Source: Firmicutes bacterium UBA3570
GTDB taxonomy: Bacteria > Bacillota > Sulfobacillia > UBA3561
Assembly: GCA_002376005.1 (NCBI GenBank)
Contig: DFNJ01000022.1
Coordinates: 42,434-106,433, forward strand
Length of the DNA stretch: 64,000 nt
Direction: 5' to 3'
The notes under the pieces were generated by a model that saw nothing but the letters and a program-made list of their open reading frames with translations, was not told where the DNA came from and made no database searches. The position numbers and the translations under genes are program-made. The stretch's first letter is position 1; every line of letters begins with the position of its first letter. Positions 1,783 to 53,336 of the stretch are shown here, piece after piece.

Positions 1783-1810
1783 GTATACTGGAAGTCTTCC
1801 CGCCTCACAA
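1783..1810 (-). promoter_or_regulatory. recA promoter: -35 TTGTGA (1810-1805), 16-nt spacer, -10 TATACT (1788-1783); spacer contains palindrome GGAAGACTTCC (1790-1800)
   Basis: Read on minus strand ...TTGTGAggcgGGAAGACTTCCagTATACTggtggaggaaatatATG; lies in the 3' end of thpR. Confidence 0.45.
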
Positions 1811-2385: not shown

Positions 2386-3642
2386 TCAGGTCAGCCGCTG
2401 CAGGGTGAGATACAGCCACGCCAGAGATTCCATGGCCGCTCGCTGTCTGACCAGTTCCCGTGGTCCGGGGTACCATCTCTCGCGGAGCTTGGTGCCCCAG
2501 GGGCCCAGCAGGCAAGCATAAACGGTGCCCACCGGCCGGCCATCTTCTTCCCTGCCCGGCCCCGCCAAGCCGGTCAGGGCCAGCGACACGTCAGCCCCCA
2601 GCAGCCGCGCCACTCCTCGGGCCATGGCTTCGCTAACCTCTGGGCTCACCGGGCCGTAGCGCTCCAGGAGGTCTGGGCCAACTCCCAGCAGGCACCTCTT
2701 GGTCTCCTGATCGTAGGCCACCACGCCCCCGAGAAAGTACCGGGAGGCCCCCGGAGCGGAGACGATCAGATCCGCCACTCTCCCGCCGGTCACCGACTCG
2801 GCGGTGGCCAAGGTGAGCTGCCGTTGCACGAGCCGGGCACCCAGGGCGGCGGGTAGCGTCTGCTCGTCCACCCCGAAGACGTGGTCGCCCAGCGCTGCCC
2901 GCAGATTAGCCTCTGCCCTCGCCAGCTGCTCCTGTCCACGGGGACCGGGTTGGGTAGCTGTCAGCCGTACCTGTATCTCACCGGGAAAGGAGTAGATCCC
3001 CACTTCCACGCCGGTCAGGGAGATTTGGGATATGCGGTGCTGGACCTGCGCTTCTCCCATCCCGCATACGCGCAACGTCATGGTTGGCGCGGGCCTTGGC
3101 CGCTCCCCCGGCAGCTGGCTGAGCAGCACCTTCTCGGCGTGCTCTGTCCACATCGTCCTGAGCTCGTGCGGCGGACCGGGAAGGCAGATCAACAGCTTCT
3201 GCTGCCAGCGCAGCCAGAACCCGGGGGCGGTACCCACCGAGTTGGGCAGCGGACTGGCTCCCTGCGGCAGCCGCGCTTGACGGAGATCTTCCTCCTGCGG
3301 TATGCCACCTCTCCGGCAGTACAGCTGGCGGGTGCTATCCCATAGCTGGGGTCGGAACTGGAGGGATAAGCCGAGGGCAGAACACACCGCCTCCCGGGTG
3401 AGATCGTCGCCGGTGGGGCCGAGCCCGCCGGTGACAATGACCACCTTCACTCGCGACAAGGACTGCCGAATGGTCTCGTCAATCTCCTCCACCCGGTCAC
3501 CAACTGTGTGTACCGCCCGCACGCGAAACCCGAGTTCGTGCAGGCGGCTGCCCAGGTAGACCGCGTTGGTGTTCACCACCGACCCGTCGAGCAGTTCCTC
3601 TCCCACGCACACGATCTCGACTGCAGTCAGCCGCCTCACCAC
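2386..3642 (-). CDS. cinA: Competence/damage-inducible protein CinA (MocF-like N-domain + CinA/PncC C-domain)
   Basis: 418 aa; N-terminal VEIVCVGEELLxG...VVIVTGGLGPTxDDLT (MoaB/MogA-like) and C-terminal LATAESxTGG...CinA domain; GTG start; classic cinA-recA neighbourhood. Confidence 0.88.
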   Translation of the reverse strand: MVRRLTAVEIVCVGEELLDGSVVNTNAVYLGSRLHELGFRVRAVHTVGDRVEEIDETIRQSLSRVKVVIVTGGLGPTGDDLTREAVCSALGLSLQFRPQLWDSTRQLYCRRGGIPQEEDLRQARLPQGASPLPNSVGTAPGFWLRWQQKLLICLPGPPHELRTMWTEHAEKVLLSQLPGERPRPAPTMTLRVCGMGEAQVQHRISQISLTGVEVGIYSFPGEIQVRLTATQPGPRGQEQLARAEANLRAALGDHVFGVDEQTLPAALGARLVQRQLTLATAESVTGGRVADLIVSAPGASRYFLGGVVAYDQETKRCLLGVGPDLLERYGPVSPEVSEAMARGVARLLGADVSLALTGLAGPGREEDGRPVGTVYACLLGPWGTKLRERWYPGPRELVRQRAAMESLAWLYLTLQRLT

Positions 3643-4830: not shown

Positions 4831-6315
4831 TCAATCTCGATGGGCCGTTTCCTCCGCCTCTTGAAGCATCTGTCGTAGTTCGTCGCCGCTCAGCCGTTCC
4901 TTTTGAGCCAGCTGTTCAGAAACATGCACCAGGAGGCGACGCCTCCCTTCCAGCAGCTGGCGAACCCGCTTCTCCTCAGTCGCCAGTACTTCCCGTACCG
5001 TGCTGAACATTACGTCCCGGGGGATGCTTTCCGCATCCACAATTCCCAGGGGACTCAATCCCGACAAAACCAGGCGCCGTGCCAGGCGCGCTGCCTGATC
5101 GAAGTCGTCGGCGGCACCCGTACTTCGCGTGCCGCACACCAGTTCTTCTGCCACCGCCCCGCCCAGGAGGGCGGCAATTTCCACCCCGATCTCCTGGGGA
5201 CAAAACAGACGGCGGTCACGGTCGCGCCGGTGCCGCACGTATCCCAAGCTAGCTCCCCGCGGGGACACCGCCACCGCGGACACCGAGCCGGGCCGCAGTA
5301 GCTCGCTGACCAGGGCGTGCCCGGCTTCGTGGACTGCCACCCGAAGCAGCTCCTCCCGAGTGGGCACTCGGTCGCTCTTTTCACCCATCAGAACCTTCTC
5401 CACCGCTTCGCGGAAGTGCTGCTGGCTTATGCGATCCCGGCCGGCCCGCAGGGCGAGGATGGCGGCCTCGTTGGCCACCATCTCCAGGTGAGCCCCCGAA
5501 AAGCCAAAGGTCTCGCCGGCGATCTCCGCCAGGTCCACGTCGCAGTCCAAAGGCTTGTCCCGAGTGTGAAGCTTCAGGATGCTCAGGCGCCCCTCGCGGT
5601 CGGGAAGAGGAACCTGCAGGATCCGGTCAAACCGTCCGGGTCTCAGGAGTGCTTCATCCAGCAAATCCGCTCGGTTGGTGGCACCGATCACCAGTATCCG
5701 GATCTCGTCATCGGGACCAAGACCGTCCATCTCCACCAACAGCTGGTTCAGGGTCTGGTCGTACTCCAAATGAGAGGAGTGCCTGCCGCGCTTGCCTCCC
5801 AGCACCTCCAGCTCGTCGATGAAAACGATGGCACTGTTCTTCCCCCTGGCTCGGGCCAGTTCTCTGGCCCGCTGGAAGAGAGATCTCACCCGCTGGGCGC
5901 CAACTCCCGCGTACACCTCCACGAACTCGCTGCCGGAAGCGCTGACGAAAACCGAGTCCGTGTGGGTAGCCGCCGCCTTGGCCAACATGGTCTTGCCGGT
6001 CCCAGGAGGACCGGTGAGCAGGATGCCCCGTATGGGGCGTATTCCCAGCTGCCGTACGCGGCGGGCACACTTCAGGAAATCCAGTGCTTCCCTCAGCTCA
6101 CGCTTGGCTGGCTCCTGGCCTCCGATGTCTGAGAAGGTCACGCCGGTTGCGCCCGCGGCGGCGCCCACAGTGGCCCGCTGGCTGAAGGCACCTCCCGACA
6201 GTCCCACCGCCCGCGACAGGACGTAAAGCAACCCCCCCAGAAACAGCAGGGGCCACAGGTTATAGCCGCGCAGGATGCAGAACAGCAGCAAGCCCGCGGC
6301 GACGCCCAGCGCCAC
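4831..6315 (-). CDS. FtsH-like AAA+ ATP-dependent zinc metalloprotease, short form (494 aa, TM hairpin, no periplasmic domain)
   Basis: Walker A GPPGTGKT, Walker B IVFIDELE, second region of homology ATNRADLLDEALLRPGRFDR, zinc site HEAGHA; N-terminal two hydrophobic helices separated by 2 residues. Confidence 0.85.
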   Translation of the reverse strand: MALGVAAGLLLFCILRGYNLWPLLFLGGLLYVLSRAVGLSGGAFSQRATVGAAAGATGVTFSDIGGQEPAKRELREALDFLKCARRVRQLGIRPIRGILLTGPPGTGKTMLAKAAATHTDSVFVSASGSEFVEVYAGVGAQRVRSLFQRARELARARGKNSAIVFIDELEVLGGKRGRHSSHLEYDQTLNQLLVEMDGLGPDDEIRILVIGATNRADLLDEALLRPGRFDRILQVPLPDREGRLSILKLHTRDKPLDCDVDLAEIAGETFGFSGAHLEMVANEAAILALRAGRDRISQQHFREAVEKVLMGEKSDRVPTREELLRVAVHEAGHALVSELLRPGSVSAVAVSPRGASLGYVRHRRDRDRRLFCPQEIGVEIAALLGGAVAEELVCGTRSTGAADDFDQAARLARRLVLSGLSPLGIVDAESIPRDVMFSTVREVLATEEKRVRQLLEGRRRLLVHVSEQLAQKERLSGDELRQMLQEAEETAHRD

Positions 6316-8265: not shown

Positions 8266-9387
8266 TCACGCGCCCCTCCGGGAGGCCAGGATCTCCCGGT
8301 AGAACTCTTCATACGCGTCCACCAGGCGTTGGGCATCGAATTGTTCCGCTCGCCGTCGCGCACCTTCCGAGTAGTCCTCCCAGACCCCTTGCTCGGACAT
8401 GATCTGCACCGCGCTACGCGCCATCCCTTCGAGGTCCTCCACTTCATGCAGCCGCCCGGAGTGCTCATCCACCACTTCCGGCAGCCCCCCCACCCTGCTC
8501 GCCACCACCGGGACCCCGCAGGCCATGGCTTCCAGGGCGGCCAGACCGAAGCTTTCCTGCGCGGAGGGCAACAGAAACAGATCGGCCACCGACAGCAGTG
8601 GCACCAAATCGTCCTGACGTCCCACGAACAGTACTGCCTCCTCCAGCCCCAGTTCCCTCGTACGCCTGCGGGCCGCCGGGACATCGGGGCCATCGCCCAC
8701 CAGGAGCAGGCGTACCGGCAGATACTCGCGGATCTGAGCCACAATCTCCACCACCGCCAGCACCCTCTTGACCGGACGGAAATTGGATACGTGAATGACG
8801 ATCTTCTCCCCACCAGGGGCGAAACAGCGCCGGAGCTCGGGATTGGGACGCCTCCGGTACGCCTGCAGGTCAACGAAGTTGGGAATCACCCGGATGGGTC
8901 GGTGAACGGTGAAGCGACGGTAGGTTTCCGCCCGCAAACTCCGCGAAACCGCAGTTACCCCGTCGCTGCGATTGATGGCAAAGCTGATTATTTCGCTAAA
9001 AGAGGGATCCGACCCTACCAGGGTGATGTCCGTCCCATGCAGGGTGGTGATGGTGACCACTTCAGGTACCAGCTGTTTCGCCAAGTAGCTGCTGACCGCA
9101 TGCGGTATGGCGTAATGGGCGTGTATGATGTCCAGACACCCGTAGCGCGCCAGCTCCACCAGCTTGTTGGTCAGGGCCAGCACGTAAGGAGGATATTTGA
9201 ACAAGGGGTAGGTGGGTACCTCCACCTGATGAAAGATGATGGCGTGCTGGTACCCGCGTAGCCTGAAGGGCAGCTCGTAGCTGACGAAATGCACCTGATG
9301 GCCGCGAGCTGCCATGGCCTTTCCCAGCTCGCTGGCCACCACGCCCGATCCTCCATAGGAAGGATAGCACACCACGGCAATCCTCAT
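8266..9387 (-). CDS. bshA: N-acetyl-alpha-D-glucosaminyl L-malate synthase BshA (GT4 glycosyltransferase)
   Basis: Start [22 protein letters not shown] typical of BshA; GT4 C-terminal [20 protein letters not shown]; coupled to bshB1 (shared nucleotide at 9387). Confidence 0.8.
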
Positions 9388-10100
9388 CAGTCGGGTCTGC
9401 CTCCTCGTCCCAGGAACACATCCAGGTCGTCCACCCACCAGCCACCGGCCATCATGAACCCCTCCGCCGCCTCCACCCCCCGCAGGGCGCCGAAGTACCG
9501 GTCCCGGGCGAGGATGTACTGCAGGTAGGCAGGCCGGTTGAGAACGGTAACGCGGCGACCGCGCGGACAGAACTGCGAACGGTAGGTGGCCAGCGCCTTC
9601 CTCTTGAGGTGGTGAACGCCACTGACGTCTACCAGCACCTGGGGATGCGTATGCTCGTTGATGAAGTACTGCAAGATCACCCGCGGTCGCCAGGGTTCCC
9701 CCGGAACCCGGTACCGGGGGAGGCCGGCCAGGTGTGCTGCCCGGGGGAGCAACTGGCCCGCCACCTGATGATCGGGGTGCCGGTCCCGGTGGTACGGGCC
9801 CATGAGGATCTGCGGCCGGTGGCTTCTTACCGCCGCCACCACCTGCCGGAGCGACGAGGCCGCTTCCAGCTGCCCGTCGGGCAACCCCGCGCAGTGCCGC
9901 TCGGCTACCCCCAGAAGCCGGGCCGCCTGGCGGGCTTCCGCCTCTCGTTCCTCAGGGCTGGCGTTGCTGGCCATCTCTCCCCGCGTCAGGTCCAAGATGA
10001 CCACCCGCCAGCCCTGCGAGGCGGCCAGCGCCAGGGTTCCGCCGCACCCCAGCTCGGCGTCGTCTGGGTGGGGCGCGATCACCAGCAGCGTGCGCTCCAT
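9387..10100 (-). CDS. bshB1: N-acetyl-alpha-D-glucosaminyl L-malate deacetylase BshB1 (LmbE/PIG-L family)
   Basis: LLVIAPHPDDAELGCGGTLA PIG-L signature; start trimmed to MERTLLV (ORF over-extended in the track); bshB1-bshA order as in B. subtilis. Confidence 0.75.
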   Translation of the reverse strand: MERTLLVIAPHPDDAELGCGGTLALAASQGWRVVILDLTRGEMASNASPEEREAEARQAARLLGVAERHCAGLPDGQLEAASSLRQVVAAVRSHRPQILMGPYHRDRHPDHQVAGQLLPRAAHLAGLPRYRVPGEPWRPRVILQYFINEHTHPQVLVDVSGVHHLKRKALATYRSQFCPRGRRVTVLNRPAYLQYILARDRYFGALRGVEAAEGFMMAGGWWVDDLDVFLGRGGRPD

Positions 10101-10156: not shown

Positions 10157-10185
10157 TTGACGCAAACAACTGTTCGTGTTATGAT
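10157..10185 (+). promoter_or_regulatory. Sigma-A-type promoter for mrfA: TTGACG -17- TATGAT
   Basis: -35 TTGACG at 10157-10162, 17-nt spacer, -10 TATGAT at 10180-10185, then RBS GGGAGAGG 7 nt before the GTG at 10208. Confidence 0.45.
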
Positions 10186-10207
10186 CGAGTTCGGGAGAGG
10201 ATGAACG

Positions 10208-12466
10208 GTGGGGCAGTTTTGGGAGTTCCTGCTCGGCAATGAGCGGTTTCGCCGTAACCTGACCGCCTACCGGACGATTCCACCACAAACGCCGCACTGG
10301 GCCGATTTTCCCGCCGATTTGGATCCCCGGCTGCCCCGCGCACTGGCAGAACTGGGCATCCGAAGGCTGTATTCCCATCAGGCAGAAGCCTGCCGGGAAG
10401 CGATGAGAGGGCGCGATGTGGTGGTGGTCACCCCCACCGCCTCCGGCAAGACCCTCTGCTACAACTTGCCGGTGCTGGATGCGGTCCTGAAGAATCCCCA
10501 GACGCGGTCGCTTTACCTGTTCCCCACCAAGGCACTCTCCCAGGATCAGCTGGACGAGCTGCACGGGCTGATAGACCGTCTGCGCGAGCCAATACGCACC
10601 TTCACTTACGACGGTGACACTCCCGCTTCGGCACGGCCCACCATCAGGAAAGCAGCCCAGATCGTGGTCACTAACCCCGATATGCTGCACGTGGCCATCC
10701 TGCCACACCACACCAAATGGCTTCGCTTGTTTCAGAATTTGCGCTACGTGGTGATAGACGAACTGCACCAGTACCGGGGTGTATTTGGCAGCCACGTGGC
10801 TTGTGTCATCCGACGGTTGAACCGGTTGTGCGAATTTTATGGTTCGCGACCGACGTATATTTGCTGTTCTGCCACCATTGCCAACCCGGAGGAGATGGCC
10901 CAGCTTCTGTTGGGGAGACCGGTCCACCTGGTGGACCGGAGCGGTGCACCCAGGGGGGAGAAACACTTCTTCTTTTACAACCCGCCGGTGGTGAACCGAG
11001 AGTTAGGAATTCGCCGTTCCGCCCTGCTGGAGAGCAAGGAAATTGCCGCCCGGCTGGTGGAGGCGGGCGCCCAGACCATAGTGTTCTCCCGCAGCCGGCT
11101 CAACGTGGAGGTACTCTCCACCTACCTGAAGCACCGGTTTCCCCCCGGCCCGGGACAGAGAGAGGTGGTCAGGGGTTACCGGGGGGGATACCTGCCTCGA
11201 GAGCGGCGCGAGATCGAGCGGGACCTCCGGGAGGGACGGATCAAGGCGGTGGTTTCCACCAATGCCCTGGAACTGGGGATTGACATCGGGACCCTCAACG
11301 CTGCGGTGCTATGTGGCTATCCGGGGACTATAGCCAGCACCTGGCAGCAGGCGGGCCGGGCGGGGCGGGGCCAGGGGGCCAGCGTGGCGGTGCTGGTAGC
11401 GTCCAGCAGTCCCCTGGACCAGTTCATCATCACCCATCCCGACTATTTTTTCGCGCGCAGCCCGGAGCACGCCCTGTTGAATCCCGACAACCCGTACATC
11501 CTGGCCAGTCACTTGAAATGCGCGGCCTTCGAACTGCCCTTCCGGGTAGGGGAAAGCTTCGGCGGGCGTGACCCCAGTGAGTACCTGGAGGAGCTGGCCA
11601 AGCATCAGGTGCTTCACCGCAGCGGCGACCGCTACTATTGGGCCACCGAAGGCTTTCCGGCCGAAGAGGTGAGCCTGCGTTCGGCCACCTGGGAAAACTT
11701 CGTGGTGGTGGACATCAGCGACCAGCCCCGGGTCATAGGGGAAGTTGACCGCTTCAGCGCGCCCTTGCTCCTGCACGAGGAAGCCATATACCTTCACGAG
11801 GGGCAGCAATACCAGGTGGAGAAGCTGGACTACCCGGAGAAGAAGGCCTACGTGCGGCGCGTCCGCGTGAACTACTACACCGACGCCCAGCTGGCGGTGG
11901 ACGTGCAGGTGTTGGATGTGCTGGGAGACAGGGCCTCGCAGAGCTACCGCAGCCATTGGGGCGAGGTACTGGTACGGGCCCGCCCCACCATGTTCAAGAA
12001 AATCAAGTTCTACACCCACGAGAATCTGGGCACCGGCCCCATAAACTTGCCCGAAGAGCAGATGCACACCACCGCGTACTGGCTTTGCCTTACTGCCGCG
12101 CCGGCACGAGTGTCTCGTGAGGCCCTCCAGGGAGGATTGGCAGGGGTAGCGCAACTCCTGGCCAACGTGGCACCGCTGTACCTCATGTGCGATCCCGGCG
12201 ATCTGAGGGTTTTCCCCCAGGTGCGATCACCTTTCACCGAACTGCCCACCATATACCTCTATGACCGCTATCCGGGGGGGACGGGCTTGGCGGAACGCGC
12301 CTTCGAGCTGGAACAGCAGCTGCTGGAGGCCGCCGCTGAGCTGCTGGAGGGTTGCTCCTGCGCCTCCGGCTGTCCCTCTTGCGTGGGAGCTCCCCAGGAA
12401 GTGGGGGTGGAGGCCAAGGAGGCGGCACGGGCCATTCTCAGCATGCTGGTGGGTGAGCCGCGGTGA
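10208..12466 (+). CDS. mrfA: DEAD/DEAH-box helicase with C-terminal DUF1998 (MrfA/YprA-like, crosslink repair helicase)
   Basis: 752 aa; helicase motifs (TPTASGKT, DELH, SAT, VSTNALELGIDIG, QQAGRAGR) plus C-terminal four-Cys cluster GCSCASGCPSCVG characteristic of DUF1998. Confidence 0.8.
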   Translation: MGQFWEFLLGNERFRRNLTAYRTIPPQTPHWADFPADLDPRLPRALAELGIRRLYSHQAEACREAMRGRDVVVVTPTASGKTLCYNLPVLDAVLKNPQTRSLYLFPTKALSQDQLDELHGLIDRLREPIRTFTYDGDTPASARPTIRKAAQIVVTNPDMLHVAILPHHTKWLRLFQNLRYVVIDELHQYRGVFGSHVACVIRRLNRLCEFYGSRPTYICCSATIANPEEMAQLLLGRPVHLVDRSGAPRGEKHFFFYNPPVVNRELGIRRSALLESKEIAARLVEAGAQTIVFSRSRLNVEVLSTYLKHRFPPGPGQREVVRGYRGGYLPRERREIERDLREGRIKAVVSTNALELGIDIGTLNAAVLCGYPGTIASTWQQAGRAGRGQGASVAVLVASSSPLDQFIITHPDYFFARSPEHALLNPDNPYILASHLKCAAFELPFRVGESFGGRDPSEYLEELAKHQVLHRSGDRYYWATEGFPAEEVSLRSATWENFVVVDISDQPRVIGEVDRFSAPLLLHEEAIYLHEGQQYQVEKLDYPEKKAYVRRVRVNYYTDAQLAVDVQVLDVLGDRASQSYRSHWGEVLVRARPTMFKKIKFYTHENLGTGPINLPEEQMHTTAYWLCLTAAPARVSREALQGGLAGVAQLLANVAPLYLMCDPGDLRVFPQVRSPFTELPTIYLYDRYPGGTGLAERAFELEQQLLEAAAELLEGCSCASGCPSCVGAPQEVGVEAKEAARAILSMLVGEPR

Positions 12467-53042: not shown

Positions 53043-53219
53043 TCAGGAATGCTTCCGCTTGAGATACTGAACGATCAGGGCATCCAGCTGGCGACTCACT
53101 TCGCGCACTTCCAGGTGGTTGAAGCTCCTTTTCTGATGATTGATCAGGTTGTGCAATCGGCCTCTCAATTCCTCCATACGTCGAACCATCTCCGCTTCGC
53201 TCAGATGACGCTGGGGCAA
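53043..53219 (-). CDS. Spo0E-family sporulation regulatory protein (aspartyl-phosphate phosphatase-like), 48 aa from ATG 53189 or 58 aa from TTG 53219; absent from the ORF track (<60 aa)
   Basis: Hand translation: (MPQRHLSEAE)MVRRMEELRGRLHNLINHQKRSFNHLEVREVSRQLDALIVQYLKRKHS; matches Spo0E family pattern; GGGAGAGG RBS upstream of TTG. Confidence 0.5.
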   Translation of the reverse strand: MPQRHLSEAEMVRRMEELRGRLHNLINHQKRSFNHLEVREVSRQLDALIVQYLKRKHS

Positions 53220-53336
53220 TTGTCCTCTCCCTTTCTTACTTGATGTAGGTGTGCGTGTATCAAGGGAAAGTTGAAAGCTCCGCTCATCATCCTCCAGCTT
53301 GTGGCCTCCTCGCGGCTACCGCTCCCCCCTCCCTTC

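Follow-up and report, generated by a model that had tools for sequence, protein, structure and literature searches.

A putative sigma-A promoter with probably incidental palindromes at recA, and a canonical Cheo box at mrfA, in an uncultured high-GC Bacillota genome

Introduction

The LexA motif of Firmicutes is GAAC-N4-GTTC, and LexA motifs differ between phyla (PMC4951493). Nor is recA always a member of the LexA regulon: Geobacter supplies a precedent for a recA gene lying outside it (Jara 2003, cited in PMC3789691). Here we describe the recA region of an uncultured Bacillota genome in a 64-kb stretch of DNA with a G+C content of 64%, referred to below as the window. The identical sequence is also found in the MAGs GCA_002376165.1 and GCA_004366965.1 and in the JGI metagenomes 3300032172 and 3300032190. 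An initial annotation of the recA promoter had singled out a GGAAG-N-CTTCC palindrome and proposed that it takes the place of the Cheo-type SOS box, either as a divergent LexA operator or as the site of some other regulator. We sought to establish what kind of promoter recA possesses, whether its palindrome stands out from chance, and how LexA sites are distributed at this and comparable loci.

The recA locus and its promoter

The locus lies on the minus strand and comprises cinA (3642-2386), thpR, which encodes an RNA 2',3'-cyclic phosphodiesterase (1805-2365; TIGR02258 at 2e-44), recA (coding region 712-1746, or from 1767 if an upstream start is used) and recX (712-74). Spacing between the genes is tight, with 20 nt separating cinA from thpR, 37 nt separating thpR from recA, and the recA stop overlapping the recX start at 712. 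Beyond recX, outside the window, lie rny, ymdB and spoVS. A sequence scan found no terminator for thpR, a consensus scan detected no convincing promoter 5' of cinA, and no regulator gene adjoins recA. A strong promoter-like site, TTGACA-18-TAGAAT (11/12), is present at 48-77 on the minus strand, directly past recX and 5' of rny. On the other side of the locus, a gene at 4831-6315 (minus strand), flanked by a miaB-like gene and cinA, encodes a 494-aa FtsH-like protein with an AAA domain and part of peptidase M41. Because this protein aligns to the FtsH model from position 114 on, with a score below the model cutoff, it lacks the N-terminal membrane part.

The initial annotation placed a near-consensus promoter, TTGTGA-16-TATACT, at 1783-1810, 14 nt from the recA ATG and inside the 3' end of thpR. 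The two hexamers and the 14-nt distance are as described, but the spacer is 17 nt long and the match to the consensus, at 9 of 12 positions, is moderate. Read along the minus strand, the region consists of the -35-like hexamer TTGTGA (1805-1810), the spacer GGCGGGAAGACTTCCAG (1788-1804), the -10 hexamer TATACT (1782-1787), GGTGGAGGAAATAT and then the ATG at 1767. The -10 therefore ends at 1782, and the feature spans 1782-1810. The -35 is weak (4/6) and is formed by the last sense codon (TTG) and the stop (TGA) of thpR. It is this hexamer (1810-1805) that overlaps thpR, the spacer and the -10 being intergenic. Hexamers 16-18 nt apart and 5' of a gene, the arrangement that defines a sigma-A promoter, are thus present at 1810-1782, and the consensus scan gives an expectation of ~0.3 sites like TTGTGA-17-TATACT per 5 kb.

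Because AGTATACT is self-complementary, a mirror promoter (TTACCA 1761 / TATACT 1789), directed antisense into thpR, is called on the plus strand as well. No signal of RNA structure is seen in the recA promoter region (z = -0.13), ruling out a hairpin or Shine-Dalgarno-sequestering structure at this position; a 1-nt loop is in any case sterically impossible for an RNA hairpin. Competence control of the operon was likewise rejected, as no cin-box was found near cinA or recA.

For comparison with other organisms, RecA homologues were searched for in GTDB genomes and in a set of 5.8 billion proteins. RecA identity falls from 100% (same species, identical sequence) straight to 85% or below, and the ThpR proteins of the best relatives are 38-44% identical to that of the window; these searches found no close relative of the species. 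Since the recA intergenic regions of the relatives do not align, their promoters could be compared only by anchoring on the -10. On this basis five other thpR-recA lineages have a promoter sequence just past the thpR stop, in four cases with TTGnnn-17: TTGCAC-17-TATACT in L085-87, which are the closest RecA relatives, TTGTCG-17-TATACT in L090, TTGATG-17-TATACT in L091, TTGTCC-17-TAAGCT in L013, and TATACT with a poor -35 in L174. The position of the promoter is thus conserved, with TATACT recurring in L085-87, L090, L091 and L174, and the spacers are wholly different among the lineages. We infer that recA-recX is transcribed from its own sigma-A type promoter at 1782-1810. The earlier suggestion that recA has a transcript apart from cinA-thpR is borne out to the extent that a plausible promoter of its own sits at the thpR stop and has the same placement in relatives.

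Among the sampled lineages, TATACT is the usual recA -10 in those with the thpR-recA order and no Cheo box (L013 having TAAGCT), and the -10 is mostly TATAAT in those with a Cheo box. TATACT also occurs in the high-GC mrfA promoters L105 and L109, and may simply be a favoured -10 variant in high-GC Bacillota. One further locus, L084 (JGI 3300071821, a 2.2-kb contig from an organism of 68% G+C), encodes a 544-aa 'RecA' in which RecA_N occurs twice, perhaps through a partial tandem duplication or a chimeric assembly.

Palindromes in the recA promoter

The perfect 5-1-5 palindrome to which the initial annotation drew attention, GGAAGACTTCC, is present in the promoter spacer at 1800-1790 on the minus strand. 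A second perfect palindrome had been overlooked: CCAGTATACTGG, with 6+6 arms and no gap, lies at 1780-1791, is centred on the -10, has CC in common with GGAAGACTTCC, and is lineage-specific.

Perfect inverted repeats whose 5-bp arms lie up to 6 nt apart occur in 4.4% of 17-nt, 14% of 29-nt and 20% of 37-nt segments of this sequence, and since such repeats occupy 4-20% of similar-sized segments, the palindrome alone is not beyond chance. Gapless 12-nt palindromes number 26 in the 64 kb, and three of the six pairs of CCAGTATACTGG come free with G+TATAC. The joint chance of two overlapping perfect palindromes in one 29-nt promoter is lower, at roughly 0.2-1%, this being a post hoc estimate.

The search for further copies, which had been put forward as a check on the motif, covered ~84 kb of the genome. 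The exact motif GGAAGNCTTCC has a single copy in the window, at 1800-1790. A further 10 kb of the genome and the other organisms' loci searched contain none, and no second copy of the dyad was found in the 84 kb. Five copies with one mismatch occur in the window, all within coding sequence, and the dyad is absent from the mrfA promoter and from every other promoter seen. The palindrome looks like a chance sequence within an ordinary housekeeping promoter and is not evidence of an operator.

The one-mismatch dyad GGAAGCATTCC (53046) forms the end of a small ORF at 53045-53225 on the minus strand, which ends ...QLDALIVQYLKRKHS, falls outside the gene list and by eye resembles Spo0E-family phosphatases. 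Looser matches to several dyads exceed the numbers expected from dinucleotide shuffles about two- to threefold: 34 against 17 for GAAC-N4-GTTC with one mismatch, 68 against 36 for GGAAGNCTTCC with two mismatches, and 9 against 2.7 for CCTTC-N5-GAAGG with one mismatch. Codon structure, lost in dinucleotide shuffles, is the probable source of this surplus.

We consider it unlikely, although less so than the other alternatives, that one or both dyads form an operator at which a repressor other than LexA blocks the recA promoter, with a related factor acting on ACCTTC-N5-GAAGGT in L085-87. Two perfect palindromes do overlap in the promoter core, one in the spacer and the other over the -10, and a recA gene without a LexA box leaves room for another regulator. 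In addition, the spacer of L085-87 carries a 6-5-6 dyad, ACCTTC-tcccg-GAAGGT, which contains the GAAG/CTTC word of the window, with the order reversed and a gap of 5 nt, and which is invariant in three strains whose upstream flank varies. Each of these observations is nevertheless within chance. Shuffling of the spacers gives 5-bp inverted repeats in at least two of the six lineages in 9% of trials, and a 4-mer repeat word common to at least two in 16%, so that the partial echo in L085-87 is not significant. The order and spacing of the half-sites differ between the lineages (5-1-5 vs 6-5-6), and no such dyad occurs in the spacers of L090, L091, L174 and L013, that is, in four of the five other lineages. 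The half-sites of the recA dyad are 6 bp apart centre to centre, as opposed to 8 bp in the Cheo box, and a typical helix-turn-helix dimer requires a longer distance than 6 bp. No second copy was found in the 84 kb, and no regulator gene neighbors recA. The recA dyad displays neither the symmetry beyond chance nor the conservation or repetition that characterize repressor operators in general.

The recA start codon

Gene calls for recA differ. The JGI and NCBI calls use the ATG at 1765-1767, which yields a protein of 351 aa with an unusual 7-residue N-terminal extension, and other gene callers (P0002 and P0003) use the TTG at 1744-1746, which yields 344 aa beginning MSEKEKAL. The ATG follows a GGAGG Shine-Dalgarno sequence (1774-1778) at a distance of 6 nt; the TTG is preceded by the Shine-Dalgarno-like GGGGGTGGGAG (1758-1748). 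The N-terminal lengths of homologues make the TTG the likelier start. Of the 119 listed RecA homologues with an FGKG motif, 100 have it at index 17-19, and in the window's RecA its index is 18 when counted from TTG 1746 and 25 when counted from ATG 1767. The distance from the -10 to the start codon, which is 44-66 nt in relatives, is 35 nt here with TTG 1746. Promoter geometry predicts a transcription start at ~1775, inside the GGAGG at 1778-1774. In our reading recA probably starts at TTG 1746 rather than ATG 1767, and the start in the public recA annotation of the MAG (ATG, 351 aa) probably lies 7 codons too far upstream.

The same features have a bearing on whether the promoter is active. 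If it were not, the hexamers would be coincidental, and recA would have no transcript but that of cinA-thpR-recA-recX, with its translation starting at ATG 1767 by way of GGAGG 1778-1774. This arrangement would fit the short gaps between the genes and the lack of a detectable terminator, as well as the in-frame GGAGG-6-ATG and its use by two of the gene calls; a transcript starting ~7 nt past the -10 would, moreover, cut the GGAGG. It is nonetheless improbable in our assessment. Promoter-like sites are rare in this sequence, as the scan expectation given above indicates, and promoter hexamers occupy the same place past the thpR stop in other lineages. TTG 1746 provides the modal RecA N-terminus and has a Shine-Dalgarno-like sequence of its own, and the upstream end of such an operon, 5' of cinA, is where no convincing promoter was detected.

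Cheo boxes at recA and mrfA

Cheo boxes were scored with a matrix built only from the recA boxes of 13 other Bacillota, the training sites of which score 16.7-20.6 bits. The best scores obtained are 0.4 bits in the 300 nt 5' of recA and -0.6 bits 5' of cinA, in agreement with the initial annotation, which saw no Cheo-like box at either gene. Matches with up to one mismatch are absent 5' of both genes; those that the region does contain are confined to coding sequence, in recA at 1689-1702 and in cinA at 3525-3538. The latter, CGAACTCGGGTTTC, is ~100 nt into the cinA coding region, has one mismatch and a low matrix score, and was judged to be a chance occurrence. The recA dyad itself does not conform to the Cheo operator (consensus CGAACRNRYGTTYG, GAAC-N4-GTTC). 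More broadly, a Cheo-like core is present within 250 nt upstream of recA in 72 of 93 recA loci, and is absent in all the thpR-recA lineages compared.

The accompanying claim that mrfA, too, has no CGAAC-N4-GTTCG motif upstream does not hold. A perfect Cheo-type LexA box, CGAACAGTTGTTTG in the minus-strand reading, lies at 10163-10176, 32 nt ahead of the mrfA GTG at 10208 and 8 kb from the recA promoter. It fills positions 1-14 of the spacer of the mrfA promoter, a strong site of the extended -10 type, TTGACG-17-TGtTATGAT (plus strand, 10157-10185), which matches the consensus at 10 of 12 positions, carries a TG extension and ends 22 nt before the GTG. The site is thus a GAAC-N4-GTTY dyad overlapping a promoter. 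The protein was recognized as MrfA from three domains, DEAD, Helicase_C and MrfA Zn-binding. The window holds no perfect CGAACN4GTTYG other than this box, 0.13 being expected, and the 16-nt GCAAACAACTGTTCGT at 10162-10177 scores 18.2 bits, within the range of the training sites and above the maximum of all 30 shuffles.

The box is conserved at orthologous mrfA promoters. Among 47 metagenomic mrfA homologue loci, nine have a site of at least 14 bits within 150 nt upstream, compared with none of 282 coding controls, and ~24 have GAAC/GAAT-N4-GTTC. This recurrence suggests that mrfA is a recurrent member of the SOS/LexA regulon.

Further observations concern the surroundings of the box. In many other Bacillota metagenome contigs, mrfA homologues have GAAC/GAAT-N4-GTTC 30-90 nt upstream. 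In the window, the promoter with its Cheo box is directly 5' of mrfA-mrfB (10157-10210). Divergent from mrfA, at 8266-10100 on the minus strand, are genes for a PIG-L deacetylase and a GT4 glycosyltransferase, a pair that resembles bshB and bshA of bacillithiol synthesis and that has the 107-nt region with the Cheo box in common with mrfA.

A tblastn search with B. subtilis LexA as the query found no lexA in the window, and none was found in the 10 kb beyond recX or in 173 loci, including the mrfA loci with their 10-kb flanks; the latter loci also contain no recA. The presence of LexA is nevertheless implied by the mrfA box, and the canonical LexA operator is most likely the one in use in this lineage.

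A broader scenario would have a deep-branching, high-GC, spore-forming cinA-thpR-recA clade take recA out of the LexA regulon and place it under a repressor that reads the GAAG/CTTC dyads of the spacers, LexA boxes being kept at genes like mrfA; we regard this combination as speculative and decidedly doubtful. Neither the MAG accessions nor the dyad sequences led to any relevant literature. That GGAAG-N-CTTCC is a diverged LexA operator replacing the Cheo box in this lineage is scarcely credible: the palindrome overlaps the recA promoter, a frequent place of LexA boxes, and LexA motifs vary among phyla, but a diverged motif is contradicted by the canonical, high-scoring Cheo box at mrfA in the same window, recurrent at mrfA homologues, and the dyad is statistically unremarkable, unrepeated at mrfA or any other promoter seen, not conserved in relatives, and spaced unlike any LexA motif in PMC4951493.

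Discussion

The explanation that we favor, and consider probable on the sequence evidence, is that recA is served by an ordinary sigma-A promoter in which the palindromes are incidental, and that recA is outside the direct control of LexA, with LexA keeping canonical boxes elsewhere. RNA polymerase would recognise TTGTGA and TATACT at a distance of 17 nt and start near 1775, giving a recA-recX transcript that adds to read-through from cinA-thpR. The ~29-nt leader of this transcript would carry GGGGGTGGGAG, with translation most likely beginning at TTG 1746. GGAAGACTTCC in the spacer and the adjoining CCAGTATACTGG over the -10 would be incidental features rather than an operator. LexA, if present as the mrfA box implies, would recognise the canonical Cheo box. 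As recA carries no such box, it would escape direct repression by LexA, like the recA genes of other thpR-recA lineages. Most likely recA has dropped out of direct LexA control, as appears to be the case in its nearest thpR-recA relatives.

Several observations count against this explanation. The two palindromes overlap, and the L085-87 lineage has a GAAG/CTTC dyad in the same spacer. The promoter comparison had no close relative to draw on, the searches covered ~84 kb of the genome, and lexA was found in none of the sequences searched. Finally, the predicted transcript would cut into the GGAGG-6-ATG at 1767, which has the form of a textbook start site.

In itself the recA result matters little, amounting to an ordinary promoter with a chance palindrome. 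Of wider relevance is the identification of an uncultured high-GC Bacillota clade with the thpR-recA gene order in which recA is apparently outside direct LexA control and canonical Cheo boxes are kept elsewhere. SOS regulons are known to be plastic, and the clade provides an example from the Bacillota. Similarly, mrfA, the mitomycin-repair helicase gene, has Cheo boxes in many lineages and looks like a recurrent member of the LexA regulon.

When set beside described systems, the recA promoter resembles the sigma-A promoters of Bacillota in its TTGnnn/17 nt/TAnnnT layout, in its location directly 5' of the gene and in occupying the same place in orthologous loci. It differs from them in having a weak -35 (4/6) that also provides the stop of the gene before it, and a -10 that is TATACT instead of TATAAT and leaves only 14 nt before the first in-frame ATG. 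The order cinA...recA and the likely co-transcription recall the streptococcal cinA-recA competence operon, which is under a sigma-X cin-box (TACGAATA), but here thpR is inserted between the two genes and neither cinA nor recA has a cin-box nearby. As with the Cheo box at B. subtilis recA, a palindrome overlaps the recA promoter. The resemblance does not extend to the recA dyad itself, which has GGAAG in place of the GAAC half-site, N1 in place of N4 spacing and a score of 0.4 bits, whereas the mrfA site CGAACAGTTGTTTG is a full match. A further parallel is with recA of Geobacter (Jara 2003, cited in PMC3789691): both organisms combine an apparent LexA system with a recA promoter that has no LexA site, although Geobacter belongs to another phylum and has another LexA motif, and the LexA-independence of recA proposed here is deduced from DNA sequence.
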